Origin: Amoebophrya sp. A120
Taxonomy: Eukaryota; Protista; Dinoflagellata
NCBI GenBank assembly: GCA_905178155.1
Contig: CAJINV010000025.1
Coordinates: 347,768-355,313 of the forward strand
Reading direction: 5' to 3'
DNA: 7,546 nt
This document shows positions 1 through 7,546 of this stretch, in pieces. Position numbers and translations under genes: made by a program. The notes beneath the pieces are model-generated. The model was not told where the DNA came from and made no database searches. It saw only the letters and a list, made by a program, of their open reading frames with translations. Within the stretch, counting starts at the first letter, position 1. Each line of letters begins with the position of its first letter.

Positions 1-350
1 ATTTCGGTTGAAAGCTGAGCTTTCTTCTCGCGGTGTTTGCGCTACTTCAGAAAAGTACACTGTGGCTAAAGCTAAACACAATAACGCGACAGAAGAAAAA
101 AACGTGTATAATTTTCGTTGGTTAATAAAGAGTTTATAACTCTACCACTACTTCTCAGGAAGGTGGGGTAGGCTTAATGGGGTTCTAAATTATTCAGCTT
201 CTCCACCAAAAATGTTGCCCGAATCGGATAGAACACAGACGAGTGTTCTCGCTTCAAAGAAGTTCGACTTTCAATTTCATTTGTTGAGATTATACCCACA
301 AGACTGCTCATATGAGACGACTCAGTGCGGAGACCACACATCAGGCACTC

Positions 351-977
351 ACAATGAGGTCGGTCGTGTCGGTCCTGTCGTGTTCTATCCACAGCCCCCG
401 TAAGGGGGGAGACTGTAGGAGAAGAAAGGCTCGCATTTTTAGTAAAAAGCTGGTTCTTGTCTTCGTTCGAGTCGGTGATCATATTAAAAAAGACTTATAT
501 ACCTGAGCGTACTACTTGGTTCCGCACTGAAGAACAAACACCTTGCCCGGGGAAAGGGGGCTTTTTAGGGGGCCTTACCCTTAGGGGCCCCCTTACCCCG
601 TTTGAAATGGGTGGCCGGGTGTTCGCTTTTTTTTCTTGGGCCCCTTTTCAACAGTCGAAAACCGAGCACCCACAGAGGGGCTTGCTTAGTCGGCCTGAGC
701 GGCCGGATTTGGATGGGGCTGCGATGGCCTTCACCCGAGGACACTCACCCCGGCGAACCTTCGAAACACTACACGCGGAGGAGTTGGGTACGCTATAGCG
801 CATGCGCCCCGGACGCCGCGATGGCTCGGGAGGTGGCCTCATCGTGGGCCTAGGGGGTCGGTCTACGCCGTTTGTTTTGCGTGCGGCGCTACCTAGCACG
901 TGGACATGAATTTTTCCTGCCGCCCCCCTGTTCCTGCAATGCAAATGCAAAGCGGAGCGACCAGAAAGGTGGCCGGC
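351..977. other. 627-bp, largely GC-rich segment present only in copy 1 (possible interspersed repeat, or a deletion from copy 2)
   Basis: Copy 2 reads GCACTC|GTTGTATATT at 5834/5835, whereas copy 1 has 627 bp at that junction. No TIR or target-site duplication seen. Confidence 0.6.
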
Positions 978-1636
978 GTTGTATATTATGGTCCTCCGGA
1001 CAAGGAGTTGATGATAAGTAAGTACTTATCAGAGTGCACCACTACAACTCGCGTTGGGCAGTTCCAGGCCTGAAAAACGGTTCACCCACTAGGCTACCAC
1101 TTCCAGGCAAAGAAAAATGTCGACCAACATACTACGTTCTGTGCTCCTTGTTCCTCCTAGGACAAAGATTTGATCCTGCCGTACGCAAGACAAGAACCCG
1201 CTGGCTGCGGCTGGCGCCGTAACTTGTTATGGCCTTTCGCTAATGTGTGTTGCAGTTCTTACACATTCGTTGCAATATTAAATTTGGCAACGCAAGCCTG
1301 TCCGGCAAGATGAAAAAAAAAACTTGCAAGAGCAGTGCGGAGATCAACATAAAGGAAAGGGATCTGTAAAACACACATAACAAAACGAGGATCGTCTTTA
1401 GCTCTACCTGATCCAATCGTGGCGCTCGACATCACAGACCACGACCTTCTCGTCATGAAAATGAAAAAGCTAAACAATACATAGGAAGGATCCTGCGCAA
1501 AAATGGCGAAAAGAAATCATACTTGTCGAGGTGAAGCAGTCAACTCGGAGTTGTGGTTTTTTTTATTAGACAACAGGTTTTCGATTTTGCTACTTCGGTG
1601 AAAAAAGTGAAACTGCGGACGGTTGCGAAGGAGGTT

Positions 1637-1730
1637 GAAATTTCGCAGATCGGAATAGAAATTCGCAGATCGGCTTTTGACATTCGCAGATCGAGGCTTT
1701 GAAGTTCGAGATCGAGGCTTTGCAGTTCGA
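1637..1730. repeat. Degenerate minisatellite with a ~20-22 bp period
   Basis: TTCGCAGATCG at 1642, 1662 and 1683, TTCGAGATCG at 1705 and a partial copy at 1726. Confidence 0.8.
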
Positions 1731-2106
1731 CCTTCGGTTTTTTCGATCCCGGATGTGAGTTTTTCGGTCCTACCCAAAAATGCAAAAGAGCATTGCACTT
1801 TTGCAAAAATGCAATGTTTGAATTCTGAAAATGCAATGTTTCGGTAATGCTTTTTTTGAAAAAATAATAGCTGGTTTATGAGTGAGGTTTGGGTATTTTG
1901 TCCCTTCATACTGCCGCTCTGAAATAACAATAAGTACGTTGCTTTATTCATCAAAATACTTTTTCAGGTTACTACACTCGTGCTACGTTTTTGGTGAATT
2001 TTTGCTCCATATTAGCCTTAAAAGCGCTATACTCACGGAGTTTTTGAATCGCATTACCGATCGGAGATCATCAGCTATACTTGTACCACCATCGATCGCT
2101 CTACTT

Positions 2107-2130
2107 TCCGTATAGCAGTTTTGGCCCAAG
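2107..2130 (+). other. Degenerate (relict) dinoflagellate spliced-leader-like sequence
   Basis: TCCGTATAGCAGTTTTGGCCCAAG vs DinoSL DCCGTAGCCATTTTGGCTCAAG: 19/22 identities with a 2-nt insertion. Sense strand, 110 nt before the ATG, not followed by a GT donor. Confidence 0.6.
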
Positions 2131-2240
2131 AAGTTTTTAGTGTGTTGACCACTAACCGAGTGTATGATTAAGTAAATAGATTACGCAAGAACATCCTACT
2201 TCCAGGAAATCGTGCCTGAGAGGACATCAACACTTTTCCA

Positions 2241-5200
2241 ATGGTTACGTCTCGTCGTGTATCAACTGCAAATATGTCTGGGTCTGGAAGATTCTGAGAT
2301 TTGTAATGTACGTTTAGCATGGGGGATAATGTCTGTAATGCATGCCGTAGCATCACAGACTTTTCGAGGGCTTCGCGCTGCCTATTCCGCATGACATCAA
2401 ATGCCCTAGATCTCCTGCGTCCGAAGCTGCTTGTGGCGACGGTGCAAAGGTTTTTGATGAGGTGCAGTCGGGTATGCATGACAATTGCGCTCTCCGCGTA
2501 GCCAAGGGTTGCATTCCCTTTGCATTTGCTGGTCATGCAATACAATTTTTTTTGGAATCCAAATGGAGCAGGACAAGTTCGGATTCTTCCAGACCCAGAC
2601 GAGACATTTTTGCATTTGATATCGTGGATTGCCCTGCTGGGCGATTGCCGTGCTGGTCGCGGTACTAGGGGGAGCTGTCCTTATCGCTGTTGTTGTTACG
2701 ACTGTGGTCATTGTCCTACAACGGGCAGGGCAGGCAAACGAAAACGAGGAACTACAAGTGTCATGGCCATGGGGGCAGAGGACAAGGCATAATGAAATCC
2801 CGACTGGCCGGAGGAATCATAATGAAGTCCCGACTGGCCCCCCAGCTGGACTTCGATTGTCATGGCCATGGGGGCAGAGGAGTCATAATGAAATCCCGAC
2901 TGGCCCCCCACCTGCACCACCGCCGCGGCCAGCGCCTGGCCCCCAACCTGCACCACCGCCGCGGCCAGCGCCTGGCCCCCAACCACCTGCACCACCGCCG
3001 CGGCCAATAGTACCCCCGTTATCTGCAGACTCACAGCTCGTGATCCAGCATGCGGGGCTGAACGCGTTGTGCCAGTCGCCGGACGTGTTGGAGTGCAGGC
3101 AGTGGACGAGGACGCAACAAGGAGGCACGGCTACGGCTAGTCAAGAACATCAAGGCACAGCATCAACTGCTACGACAACGAACGCCCCAAGTTCCTCCGA
3201 CTCGACTTTCTATGTGTCCGTCGACATGAAGAAGAATGTTGGCGCTTCTGCAAATAACGGCGCGGACGATGAAGATGGCTTCACCATTGAACTCGATCTT
3301 CCTGCTGGCGTGTTTTACGATGGACGTTATCCGGGTATACCCGCGTACCAGTCGGGCAAGTACATCGTGAGAAGCCGAAGATTGCGGCCCTCCTATGTCC
3401 GGCGCGACCCGGATCTGGCACAGTTCTCTCCCATTCGTTCCCAGCGCATGGGCTGGGCGGACGCAGAGCTTACGCTTCCCGGCGCGAGGACTAGTACGAC
3501 GACCGGTTCTACTGCTGGTACTACTGGTGGAGCCATCGATAATAATGCGCCACCAGCAACGACAGCGCCACGACCAATAAATACGATCCCAATTTTCCTG
3601 AAATTTGACGAGCTCGACTTTCGCAACGATGACCGCGCCAAGGGTTTTCTGCACAACGCTGAAAAAATCTCGGATGTTTGCCACAGGGTAGCGCTGGGTC
3701 TTTCCCCGTTTCCAGCATTCCCAAGCCTAGAAAAGGAGTTTGGAAATTATAGTAGTAGCGCCACGACTTCTTCACAATGGCAGCCACATGCTGCAGGCGA
3801 ACGCTTGAGGCGATTTTTCCGGATGCGGCCCGTTCCTGCTCCGACCGTCATCTCCGTAATCGGTGAGCCCGGCAAAGAGACCGGCTGTGGCTTTTTGACG
3901 ATGTTGGAAAAGGCTGATAGTGACAACGAGTCCTCGCCGTCGCCGGCGTCACCAACTACAACGCCAGCCGCACCTGCTGGACGAGCAAGCAGCCCCGTTC
4001 TGGCTCGGCGGTCGATGCCCTTGAGCGACGTGCTGCGGCGAGTCAAGAGGGCCCGAGAAAGTAGTGCAGGCGGCGCCGCAACTACATTTCTGCAGCGGCG
4101 GGGGGCAGCAGCAGCAGCACCAGCAGCGGCTCGACCACCAGCGAACACAACTACTATGACACAAGCCTCGACTGCGGCAGATTTTGACGACGCCCTGCAG
4201 GCTCTCTTTACGGACACGTCGACTACCGACTTTGTGCAGCAACTGTACACGGAGCTGGTGCGAAACTTGCGGACAATGGACCGGTCGTATCCTGAGTAAA
4301 AACATCCCCACACCAGAGTCAAGACGGGGATTTTGCAACACAAACCTAGAACTTTTGGGGGTCACGCATCACAAGTTGCAGTCCGTAGTGTAGTGCGGGT
4401 TCGTGAGGCCAGCTGCATCAGAAATCCATCTGCTCATCCTGTTTACAGCATTACATACAAATTCCACAACACGATTGGAAATGGCTCCCATGCGGATGCG
4501 CATTACAGGTCTTCCTGTCTTTGCAAATCTGCATTACAACTCTGGTGTGGGTACGTTTTTACACAGGATAGGTCGGGTTTTTTATACATCGACGTGCACG
4601 GCTTGAATATCAAATGTAAAAATGTCTGGGTCTGGAAGAATGCAACTTGTCATGCTGTTTTTCGACTCTAAAAAAAATTGTATTGCATGACCAGCAAAAT
4701 GGGTACAGTTTTTGCTACACAGACAGGCCATTTCTCATGCGGAAGGTGCATGAGGAAGCCCTCTAAAAGTCTGCGATGCTAGTTCAAGCATTACAGGCAT
4801 CATGGGTCATGAGAAATATACATGACAAATCTTGCATTCTTCCAGACCCAGACATTTTTACTTTTGATATTGAACACCTTGGTGCACTTTGAGCTTGTAG
4901 AAGTAGCAGACTCCTCGCAGGAGCCCCCGGGGGCTCCACCTGTCGCGGCTCCCGTTGTACAACTGCGGTATGAACTGTCCCTGGTAGATTACAAAACCCT
5001 GTTGTACATGCGGTCTGCGCAGAAAAATTTTGGTGGGCGGGATGACAGCACGATTGGAGTCCTCAATAACACGAGCGGACGAGACACCAGGCTGCTGCAC
5101 GAAGAACTTCTTTTCGAGGTGGCGAGGACAGCGCCAACGCATTCCACAGTAACCTCCAACCCGGCTGCACCTGATTTGCAGCCGCGGCCACAGACCTTAC

Positions 5201-5673
5201 GAACCCTTTTCGCTTTGAGGAATTTACCAACCCAATGGGGTGGCACAGGTGGCCACATCAAGGACCTGTTTTTTGCCCTGCGCCTCAGTCGCCGCGATCC
5301 GAATAATGCAGGCCGATCCTGTCAAGCCTATGGTGACGAGCTGTATCCCTGGAACCAATACGACCCGGACGCGGTCCCAACGGGCCCGATGGCGGACGAG
5401 CCGGTTACGTACGACCTGACTAGTGGTATCTTGGAGGACAAAGCTTTCGGTTCCGCAATTATGGGCGAAGCGTTCAAGGACCTCATCACCTTTGAACAGA
5501 AAGAAGAGATCGAGATAGCCGTGCTAGAGGAAGACATTGCCGCCGGCGTCTACCAGAACATTCCAGCCGACGCGTATTACGCGGCCCCGGCGGGAGGACA
5601 GCTGCCTAGGGAGGAGATGGACCGGAACCGCATACGAGAGCGGAATAGCTGCCTAAGGGAGCGAAGAGACTGA
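2241..5673 (+). CDS. Predicted 4-exon gene, join(2241-2259,2627-4296,4567-4607,4875-5673): 842-aa hypothetical protein with an N-terminal signal/anchor helix and a Pro-rich stalk
   Basis: ATG 2241 is the first ATG after the in-frame TGA at 2217. Deleting each TIR element plus one direct repeat gives continuous junctions: MVTSRR|GLPCWAIAVLVAVLGGAVLIAVVVTTVVIVLQR, ...MDRSYPE|DRSGFLYIDVHGLN|TLVHFELVEV..., ending at TGA 5671-5673. Total 2529 nt = 843 codons. No family recognised. Exact splice positions slide within the direct repeats. Confidence 0.75.
2260..2621. mobile_element. Element A: 362-bp MITE-like TIR element, putative introner (intron 1)
   Basis: Left end TATCAACTGCAAATATGTCTGGGTCTGGAAGA; right end reverse-complemented TATCAAATGCAAAAATGTCT(CGTCT)GGGTCTGGAAGA. 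Perfect 5-bp direct repeat TCGTG at 2255-2259 and 2622-2626. Confidence 0.9.
2627..4296 (+). CDS. Exon 2 (the 556-aa ORF of the track): hydrophobic helix, peptide repeats, Pro/Thr/Ala-rich linkers between non-repetitive segments
   Basis: Long GC-rich open frame that has only a TTG start on its own. It begins right after element A, and its apparent stop TAA (4297-4299) is the first 3 nt of element B's TIR. Confidence 0.85.
2759..3006 (+). repeat. Coding repeats: SWPWGQR x2, HNE(I/V)PTG x3 and a 36-bp PAPPPRPAPGPQ unit x~2.6
   Basis: TGTCATGGCCATGGGGGCAGAGG at 2759 and 2858; CATAATGAARTCCCGACTGGCC at 2788, 2818 and 2884; CCTGCACCACCGCCGCGGCCAGCGCCTGGCCCCCAA at 2911, 2947 and partially at 2986. 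Confidence 0.9.
4297..4561. mobile_element. Element B: 265-bp TIR element, putative introner (intron 2), a different TIR family
   Basis: TAAAAACATCCCCACACCAGAGT (4297-4319) matches the reverse complement of 4539-4561 (TAAAAACGTACCCACACCAGAGT) at 21/23. Flanks CTGAG/CACAG are a degenerate 5-bp repeat (3/5). Confidence 0.8.
4567..4607 (+). CDS. Exon 3, a 41-nt mini-exon (DRSGFLYIDVHGLN) between elements B and C
   Basis: It is the only sequence between the two TIR elements and is open in the same frame as exons 2 and 4. Confidence 0.65.
4608..4869. mobile_element. Element C: 262-bp MITE-like element, putative introner (intron 3); same family as A, opposite orientation
   Basis: The TIR TATCAAATGTAAAAATGTCTGGGTCTGGAAGAATGCAA matches the right end at 37/38. 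Perfect direct repeat TTGAA at 4603-4607 and 4870-4874. Internal 4670-4698 is the exact reverse complement of 2525-2553. Confidence 0.92.
4875..5673 (+). CDS. Exon 4 (C-terminal part; the track's 283-aa ORF without its element-derived N-terminus)
   Basis: Open frame to TGA 5673. The ATG at 4822 lies inside the right end of element C, so it is unlikely to be a real start. Confidence 0.8.
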
Positions 5674-6826
5674 GTAGCGAATGTGACCCACACGACCCAT
5701 TGCGCGAATGTTGCCCGAACGATAGAACACAGACGAGGTCCGCTTCAAAGAAGTTCGACTTTCATTTGTTGAGATTGTACCCACAAGAGACTGCTCATAT
5801 GAGACGACTCAGTGCGGAGACACATCAAGCACTCGTTGTATATTATGGTCCTCCGGACAAGGAGTTGATGATAAGTAAGTACTTATCAGAGTGCACTACA
5901 ACTCGCGTTGTGCTTGTGCAGTTCCAGACATGAAAAACTGTTCACCCACTAGACTACAACTTCCAGGCAAAGAAAAATCTCGACCAGCATACTACGAAAA
6001 ATGTGTTGCAGTTACTACACATGCGTTGCAAATTTGGCAACCCAAGCTTGTCCGGCAAGACAGAGAAAGAAAACTGGCAAGAGCCGCGCGGGGATCAACA
6101 TAAGGGATTAAAACCCACTAATAAAGTATACGAGGATCGTCTTATTTAGCTCTACCTGATCCTGATGCAATCGTGGCGCTCGACATTACAGACCACGACC
6201 TTCTCGCGATGAAAATGAAAGAGTCAGCAAAATCGAAAAGGAAGGATCCCGACCTGTAGTAGTTGCACACCTGAAACAATGAATTTGAATCTTCATGTGC
6301 TTCTCCATAATAGTACTCGTCTCAGGCACGAGCACGACGGGAACGGTCCTGCGCAAAATTTTTGGCGAAAGAAAATCATACTTATCGAGGTGCAGTAGTC
6401 AACTTCTCGCACCGCCAAGCCTAGCGCGGACCTTGATCCGAGTCAGAAGTAGAGAATGGAGGTGATCAGCGAACGAGTAAAAAAAGATCAGAATGGACCG
6501 CCTGGTGGCATCGTGGTTCCAGCGAGAATGCTGGTGCTAGCAGTCTACGGACGATCATCGCATAACGATCATCGCATAGCGAAAAATTCTTCCTGCTACA
6601 CACAAGAGCTTTTTGATGCTCAACATCTTCCTGCCGCTCTGAAATATAAACAATAAGTACGTTGCTTTCATCAAAATACTTTTTCAGGTTACTACACTCG
6701 TGCTACGTTTTTGGTGAATTTTTGCTCCATATTAGCCTTAAAAGCGCTATACTCACGGAGTTTTTGAATCGCATTACCGATCGGAGATCATCAGCTATAC
6801 TTGTACCACCATCGATCGCTCTACTT

Positions 6827-6850
6827 TCCGTATAGCAGTTTTGGCCCAAG
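6827..6850 (+). other. Relict spliced-leader-like sequence, copy 2
   Basis: Identical to 2107-2130. Confidence 0.6.
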
Positions 6851-6906
6851 AAGTTTTTAGTGTGTTGACCACTAACCGAGTGTATGATTAAGTAAATAGA
6901 TGACGC

Positions 6907-7213
6907 TATGGATGTGTCAGAGTTGAAATCGACAAAGTTGAAATAATTTGTCATGCATAAAATGGATGCCAGTTGGAGCCCAGTTTTCAAGTGGCGCATG
7001 ACAAATTTCGGTGGTCCCTAAATCCAGTTTGTCATGCTATTTAGGCAAAGAAGAGCGATTTTCTCATGCTACTTTAGCAGCTCGAGCTGTAACCCCAAAC
7101 AGGCTTACAATCGGCCTCACTTGCCTGCTCTGCAACGCACGTACCTCGGGTCATGCATTTTATGCATTACAGATTATTTCAACTTTGACGATTTCAAACC
7201 TGACGCTTCCATA
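6907..7213. mobile_element. Element D: 307-bp MITE-like element with 62-bp TIRs upstream of gene copy 2, absent from copy 1
   Basis: 6907-6968 matches the reverse complement of 7152-7213 at 54/62 (TATGGA...). Flanks are GACGC (6902-6906) and TACGC (7214-7218). The paralogous empty site has a single TACGC at 2182-2186. Confidence 0.92.
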
Positions 7214-7272
7214 TACGCAAGAACATCCTACTTCCAGGAAATCGCGCCTGAGAGGACATCAACACTTTTCCA

Positions 7273-7291
7273 ATGGTTACGTCTCGTCGTG
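7273..7291 (+). CDS. Exon 1 (MVTSRR) of a probable tandem paralog; the rest lies outside the window
   Basis: Identical to 2241-2259, in the same context and followed by the same element. Confidence 0.6.
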
Positions 7292-7546
7292 TATCAACTG
7301 CAAATATGTCTGGGTCTGGAAGATTCTGAGATTTGTAATGCACGTTTAGCATGGGCCATAATGTCTGTAATGCATGCCGTAGCATCACAGACTTTTCGAG
7401 GGCTTCGCGCTGCCTATTCCGCATGACATCAAATGCCCTAGATCTCCTGCGTCCGAAGCTGCTTGTGGCGACGGTGCAAAGGTTTTTGATGAGGTGCAGT
7501 CGGGTATGCATGACAATTGCGCTCTCCGCGTAGCCAAGGGTTGCAT
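7292..7546. mobile_element. Element A' (paralogous copy of A at the same site in gene copy 2), truncated by the window end
   Basis: Matches 2260-2514 with 3 substitutions and is preceded by the same TCGTG (7287-7291). Confidence 0.9.

Follow-up and report, generated by a model that had tools for sequence, protein, structure and literature searches.

Introner elements of one family lie in both orientations within an Amoebophrya gene and are missing from RNA-type contigs

Introner elements of Amoebophrya sp. A120 were described by Farhat et al. 2021 (PMC7789003) as repeats that start with TAT and are bounded by direct repeats of 3-5 nt, in a genome where more than 60% of introns are non-canonical; the available text of that report calls the border position variable or unknown. 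According to the same text, U2, U4, U5, U6 and nearly all spliceosomal proteins are kept in A120 and no U1 was found. With no U1 detected, A120 nevertheless has tens of thousands of non-canonical introns to remove, and the means of their removal is the background question. Another Amoebophrya strain is described in the accessible part of PMC12005148 as having canonical introns and U1. Introners of Polarella glacialis (classes 2, 3, 6, 7, 8 and 10) and Aureococcus carry terminal inverted repeats (TIR) and target-site duplications (TSD) and form introns in both orientations, as given in the preprint text (bioRxiv 10.1101/2020.10.14.339549). A 2022 introner survey allowed matches in opposite orientation, and the available text of its preprint does not mention Amoebophrya; a 2025 survey (PMC12130899) included A120 introners, with no orientation result in its accessible sections. 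In the main text and supplement text of Farhat et al., figures S17 and S19-S25 aside, none of the four main-text mentions of 'orientation', and none of the supplement passages, concerns the orientation of elements (PMC7789003). The introner system is already known; orientation neutrality and a fixed cut register were not found reported for A120 or other Amoebophrya in the literature searched, subscription papers and supplement figures aside.

The window is the whole 7,546-nt stretch of the A120 assembly that was analysed. It was scanned for TAT...ATA elements with a direct repeat of at least 4/5 and an inverted repeat of at least 9/15, and exactly four elements were returned. Element A (2260-2621, 362 nt) is flanked on the plus strand by TCGTG (left copy 2255-2259, right copy 2622-2626), element B (4288-4570, 283 nt) by GGTCG, and element C (4608-4869, 262 nt) by TTGAA on both sides, the two repeat copies agreeing 5/5 in each case. 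Element D (6907-7213, 307 nt) lies in the 5' untranslated region of a second gene copy and has the mismatched repeat GACGC/TACGC (4/5). A and C are members of one family; B and D each represent a separate family. The traits of a MITE are present, namely short length (262-362 nt), TIR, target duplication and, for D, an empty paralogous site at 2182-2186 in gene copy 1.

The host gene (copy 1, plus strand) runs from the ATG at 2241 to the TGA at 5673. When A, B and C were taken out together with one repeat copy each, a single frame of 836 aa was obtained; the antisense frames of the gene contain 14-30 stops. The protein has a hydrophobic anchor at its N-terminus and Pro-rich repeats. Pfam searches with two ORFs of the window gave no family for the host protein, an Rfam search gave no match at E 0.1, viral contigs gave no match to the sequence, and an atlas search with the host protein gave only weak kinase-like rows, all under the bar. 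The exon between A and B, used as a query, returned two proteins at 96% (P0001) and 62%, both labelled Amoebophrya sp. A120. Because the protein closest to that of the host gene carries this label, A-D are identified as introners of the known class that Farhat et al. 2021 describe in the available text of their report (PMC7789003). The A120-labelled proteins P0001 and P0002 are continuous across the B and C junctions, as predicted.

The gene and its upstream region are tandemly duplicated (window about 212-5707 and 5708-7546). D occurs in gene copy 2 only. A has a counterpart in the duplicate, A2 (7292-7546), which lies in the same orientation, is 99% identical over 300 nt and runs off the end of the window. 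P0002 is a third, more distant paralog of the host gene. The public protein P0001 starts in a different frame (that of the ORF at 2669-3010), and the exon before A and the hydrophobic N-terminus are absent from it. A GC-rich stretch of approximately 630 nt (about 345-975, with a hairpin at 548-600) is present in unit 1 and missing in unit 2; it is not a TAT...ATA element. Relative to unit 2, unit 1 also has an extra insertion of approximately 100 nt at about 1137-1245, and about 1545-1905 is replaced, with short tandem repeats (1639-1730).

The first-pass annotation had described the interiors of A and C as inverted relative to each other, and this was borne out. Positions 2525-2553 are the reverse complement of 4670-4698 (29/29), 2348-2374 match the reverse complement of 4755-4781 at 25/27, and the target repeats of the two elements are, as had been claimed, unrelated. 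Global alignment of A with C scored 30 in the forward and 187 in the reverse direction. Against reverse-complemented C, A is identical at 209/262 positions (80%) over the whole length and at 130/172 positions of the interior. The left ends of A and C are 91% alike over 32 nt, and the right end of A contains an insertion of 5 nt. Relative to C, A has approximately 86 extra nt (about 2397-2482), and these had no good match among the 151 loci listed in the genomic scan described below (best score 38). Because of their inverted repeats, both elements fold into long terminal stems, with z-scores of -13.5 (C) and -4.8 (A), far beyond chance. In DNA-like run X1, element ends were found at a depth of 1e4-1e6 against approximately 150, which marks a repeated family. 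A and C belong to a single transposon-derived intron family of the Amoebophrya A120 type and are inverted relative to each other.

A, B and C start with TAT, followed by seven variable bases and AAA; D starts with TAT but is without the AAA. Families N6-N8, which include D, have TCA instead of AAA at repeat positions 11-13, and their 3' ends read YTGA with no U tract. We take the YTGA to be branch-point-like.

Removal was assessed in assembled contigs from four runs of one sample in one study. These were labelled RNA by guess and gave no cover at 6083-6586; assembled contigs can merge alleles, and phasing is uncertain. The A joint (2254>2622, 367 nt skipped) was present in two of the four runs (X4, X6). 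The joints of B (4282>4571, 288 nt), C (4602>4870, 267 nt) and D (6902>7215, 312 nt) were present in all four. All four elements, A and C included, are absent to the base from RNA-type contigs. No slide along the direct repeat offers GT/GC...AG ends in A, C or D, and in C no slide gives even a GT/GC start or an AG end alone; B offers GT-AG only with a cut 1 nt into the repeat. In-frame GT/GC-AG pairs near A (9) and C (24) were unused by the RNA-type joints. X4 also contains a retained piece (2451-2639), with a depth of 3 compared with 10.9. Coverage from the raw-read runs X15 and X16 was confined to the repeat end and did not reach the gene. One RNA-type contig with 8 differences over part of the intergenic repeat (5829-5996) and one D-like contig skipping 86 nt internally (7011-7098) are likely to come from other loci.

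The A-skipping contig of X4 has a depth equal to that of the D joint, and its exon 2 has an ACA insertion missing from the window; that of X6 agrees with the window over 2622-2826. The A joint stems from gene copy 1, gene copy 2 or both. RNA could also derive from genomic copies without B and C, in which case the window copy need not be spliced. The tandem duplication of the gene and the presence of D in only one copy fit such an origin, and in DNA-like run X1 joints other than that of D are masked by copies at other loci, which would hide a genomic copy empty of B or C. We regard it as highly unlikely: an X3 contig that skips B and C has no differences from the window over 4115-4282, where P0001 differs, the X6 contig is without the ACA insertion of the other copy, and the 72 other copies of the A/C family described below would be left unexplained.

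Further copies were collected by a pattern scan, which gave at least 151 loci; the 80 listed rows all have the prefix JACKZZ01, from a related assembly. Removal at the JACKZZ01 loci was judged from reading frames rather than from RNA. The 151 loci listed contain 224 elements, 211 of them unique and 119 with A/C-type ends. An initial clustering that linked A/C to B gave way to a stricter one. Interior polarity was assigned from 2082 alignment edges among the loci listed, none in conflict. Coding strands were called with a codon model that was correct in 27/27 leave-one-out cases, giving a strand at 124/211 junctions in the listed loci, 72 of them A/C. These 72 copies comprise 34 that are C-like and 38 that are A-like (p 0.72). 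Eight smaller families in the same loci have calls, each too small to test, and six of these occur in both orientations. Same-locus pairs numbered 55 in the loci listed, and those with clear direct alignments, counted by eye, were opposite in 7 cases and the same in 6. At locus L006, both orientations lie within one 2637-nt frame.

Several elements in these loci were unusually long (L075:1491-2462, L064:1491-2521, L048:1595-2225 and L046:571-1051) and are maybe nested insertions or mispaired ends; the one at L075 sits in an Rpb1 gene.

With exact removal, 123/211 junctions of the listed loci could be called, against 16 with a 1-nt shift and 18 with a 2-nt shift. Pfam matches were found in 8/59 called-strand segments and 0/59 opposite-strand segments of these loci, with both orientations represented. 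C-like copies among them interrupt ABC, acyl-CoA dehydrogenase, Rpb1 and gamma-tubulin-complex genes; A-like copies interrupt SNF2, 3-hydroxyacyl-CoA dehydrogenase, RRM and ABC genes.

Stable hairpins between short direct repeats favour template switching by reverse transcriptase. The elements have this geometry and all RNA evidence here consists of cDNA contigs, so the skips could be artefacts of this kind and the elements ordinary MITEs. This is very improbable, given that retention of the element disrupts the frame in all 72 A/C copies among the loci listed, including those in Rpb1, SNF2 and gamma-tubulin-complex genes, and that frames and conserved residues continue through the junctions.

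We are confident, on the strand calls from the listed loci, that A/C elements occupy genes in both directions about equally. It follows from orientation independence that the element interior carries no essential strand-specific signal. Precise removal in both orientations, which the first-pass annotation had supposed, agrees with the exact RNA-type joints and with the frames across the junctions. Its conclusion that the signal must reside in the symmetric ends also stands. Splicing of a single orientation, a bias in orientation (34:38) and the use of GT/GC-AG sites by A or C were not found.

The direct repeats in the listed loci have a composition like that of the flanking exon. GT-AG ends are possible at 9/124 of these sites against 8.6 expected, with per-register counts equal to chance; 26/124 sites lack both a GT/GC start and an AG end, and 18/124 offer any G[TCA]-AG. 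There is no target-sequence requirement, and target sequences are without GT-AG enrichment.

The register of the cut was approached through mismatched repeats, which reveal the copy that the message keeps. Six sites were used, only D being read from RNA. At D, the RNA-type contigs retain the left G at repeat position 1, which places the cut at 1 or later; as this reading comes from cDNA, template switching can still obscure where exactly the cut lies. At L070, a cut before the repeat gives a stop, so that the cut is again at least 1. At L041, the Glu of a homolog is encoded by the left copy at position 3 (at least 3). At the first site of L037, the frame agrees with P0004 at every residue over 130 aa and requires the left copy at position 4 (at least 4). 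At the second site of L037, a cut of exactly 4 gives the QQQ of P0004, whereas cutting at 5 runs into a stop and cutting at 3 or earlier yields His; this element is degenerate and was spotted in a gap of that gene, and P0004 is from another strain and differs at the next codon. At L061, the cut lies between 1 and 4, the left copy giving Met as in PDB 2gn4, and the upper limit is soft, since with the right copy at position 5 the residue opposite His is Arg instead of Pro. The upstream exon of L061 had no match in the homolog search. Among five loci for which register homologs were sought, L134 had none and the alignments of L014 stop short of the site. The mismatched repeats of L087 and L016 are synonymous and give no register information, and most of the 42 mismatch rows in the listed loci were without a homolog. 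No case contradicted a cut after the fourth repeat base.

From these few cases, a fixed register appears likely, in which the cuts lie 1 nt ahead of TAT and 4 nt past ATA. The earlier proposal that the cut is placed by distance gains from the D joint and from the mismatched-repeat sites at L041 and L037. The predicted intron would start N-U-A-U-(C/G) and end (C/G)-A-U-A-N-N-N-N, giving 2259-2625 (GT..GT) for A, 4287-4574 (GT..TC) for B and 4607-4873 (AT..GA) for C. Direct repeats end in one codon phase at 65/124 sites of the listed loci (p 4e-5), which would be phase 0 at this register. This excess was discarded as register evidence: it is compatible with cutting at either 1 or 4, yet part of it (41-44%) also emerges from a target-site matrix, by a circular argument, and target preference may be the cause of that part. 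At L041:1267-1532 (minus strand), the left repeat form would give GT-AG at the predicted register, but the AG is gone from the right copy and the reading frame is unbroken.

The first-pass annotation had read removal in either orientation as a pointer to structure-guided or transposase-like recognition, and here it was not upheld. The inverted repeats are 30-45 nt long and symmetric, so that an inverted copy shows the same linear 5' and 3' ends; a spliceosome reading these ends would be just as blind to orientation, and orientation independence therefore cannot alone tell a spliceosome reading a terminal motif from an enzyme reading structure. Either-orientation intron creation has, moreover, already been published for other introners. 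The predicted cut lies at unequal distances from the two sides of the stem (1 nt and 4 nt), and sense-strand G-U mismatches are not in excess over A-C mismatches in the listed loci (127 against 142; 54 against 74 in the first 16 nt).

A spliceosome-free route, in which an endonuclease and a ligase recognise the base of the long stem and a circle is released, as proposed for euglenids, is rather unlikely. Strong stems do connect the ends, no target is required, and sense and antisense strands fold alike (sense lower in 57/120 in the listed loci). U1 was not found in A120, as far as the text of PMC7789003 goes, and euglenid TIR introns with TSD-like repeats leave as circles according to the available part of a review (PMC11282704). 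Against it, besides the missing G-U excess, repeat positions 4, 5 and 7 show no covariation in the listed loci, pairing there being no more frequent than for randomly chosen partners. At positions 10 and 14 the two ends do covary (p 0.003 overall, same loci), which could reflect pairing or shared ancestry. All families share the terminal TAT(C/G), though a stem needs no fixed sequence. TAT was required by the element finder; without this filter it was present at 169/179 and 98/101 ends in the listed loci, where it is only slightly better conserved than the remaining repeat (3/303 against 39/1313 changes). The degenerate weak-stem element of L037 is still read through. Terminal pairing may help removal, and selection for pairing is without support from these counts.

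Recognition of the inverted repeats by a domesticated transposase or integrase, which would cut the element out of RNA or out of a DNA copy that is transcribed, is distinctly improbable. The ends are transposon hallmarks, and A120 family 38 has integrase-like ORFs between its TIRs (PMC12130899, available text). The same outcome is however seen in at least ten families with different repeats, the predicted cut is asymmetric on the sense strand, and no transposase was found in A120 by Farhat et al. in the text at hand (PMC7789003). The D-less form with G at 2182 also speaks against this route: it had 0 of depth 86.6 in DNA-like run X1 and 25.8 of 25.8 in X3.

We favour, with moderate confidence, excision of A and C by a modified spliceosome that reads the symmetric ends only, its predicted cuts lying 1 nt ahead of TAT and 4 nt past ATA. 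Short TIR elements, found here with a 5-nt target duplication, would have inserted as non-autonomous DNA transposons. In the related assembly, they occupy reading frames in either orientation alike, whatever the target sequence. In the contigs of the one study, the element is missing together with one repeat length, which brings the original frame back. With a cut 4 nt into the repeat, as the six mismatched repeats suggest, the intron would start N-U-A-U-(C/G), keeping the donor +2 U and +3 A with the first base free, and would end A-U-A-N-N-N-N with no AG. The donor-like end would be read without U1, and the terminal stem would keep both ends together; the distance to the closing AUA would fix the 3' cut, and an A of this triplet is a possible branch point.

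The canonical donor has +2 U, +3 A and +5 G. From the sequence pattern, we infer that the N-U-A start may be a donor read by the spliceosome. The base at +5 speaks against this, C being more frequent than the canonical G in the listed loci (C 71, G 29, n=101). One canonical-looking intron at L041 begins GTAAAT. In Table S4 of Farhat et al., within the text available, all nine leading A120 splice-site pairs have N-T at the start, which may stem from aligner preference; in A25, the repeat is TTA-purine-purine and leading pairs start TT, with the same +2 U and +3 A (PMC7789003).

A wider alternative would be a general transposon-cancelling RNA pathway in A120, outside the spliceosome, in which a dedicated or domesticated enzyme recognises any TAT...ATA element that has a 5-nt duplication, whatever its direction or target, measures by the stem, and cuts 1 nt before and 4 nt after without a scar. 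This we hold to be unlikely.

Orientation neutrality combined with no target requirement means that any insertion can be silent, which would explain the spread of the elements; other either-orientation introners, in contrast, depend on a lucky G or AG. If the fixed register is true, diverse splice-site dinucleotides would reduce to one rule (N-UA start, cut 4 nt past AUA). It would also give exact junctions for searches for lariats versus circles and would correct gene models such as that of P0001.

Among known systems, the nonconventional introns of euglenids are alike in their TIR stem, TSD-like repeats, non-canonical ends and likely MITE origin, as given in the available text of PMC11282704. 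Their pyrimidine/purine junctions and the CAG/CTG near their ends are missing here, where ends read TAT(C/G); excision as circles has been shown for the euglenid introns. The introns of Fritillaria borealis, from the same portion of PMC11282704, are alike in being MITE-derived, non-canonical and apparently removed by an altered spliceosome; they prefer AG-AC/AG-AT ends, whereas the terminal dinucleotides here come from an arbitrary target. The either-orientation trait of Polarella and Aureococcus introners is present (34:38 in the listed loci), and the near-canonical site from target duplication is absent. By the preprint text (bioRxiv 10.1101/2020.10.14.339549), those introners have G[T/C/A] donors and AG acceptors, carried or target-derived, whereas GT-AG is at chance here; Polarella classes 6, 8 and 10 have an orientation bias, and none is seen here. 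The A120 introners of Farhat et al. are the same system, with TAT inverted repeats, 3-5-nt junction repeats, a length of approximately 240 nt, repeated families and non-canonical borders in the text available (PMC7789003). Compared with that description, the elements here are orientation neutral, their register is probably fixed, and D-type families are without AAA at positions 11-13.
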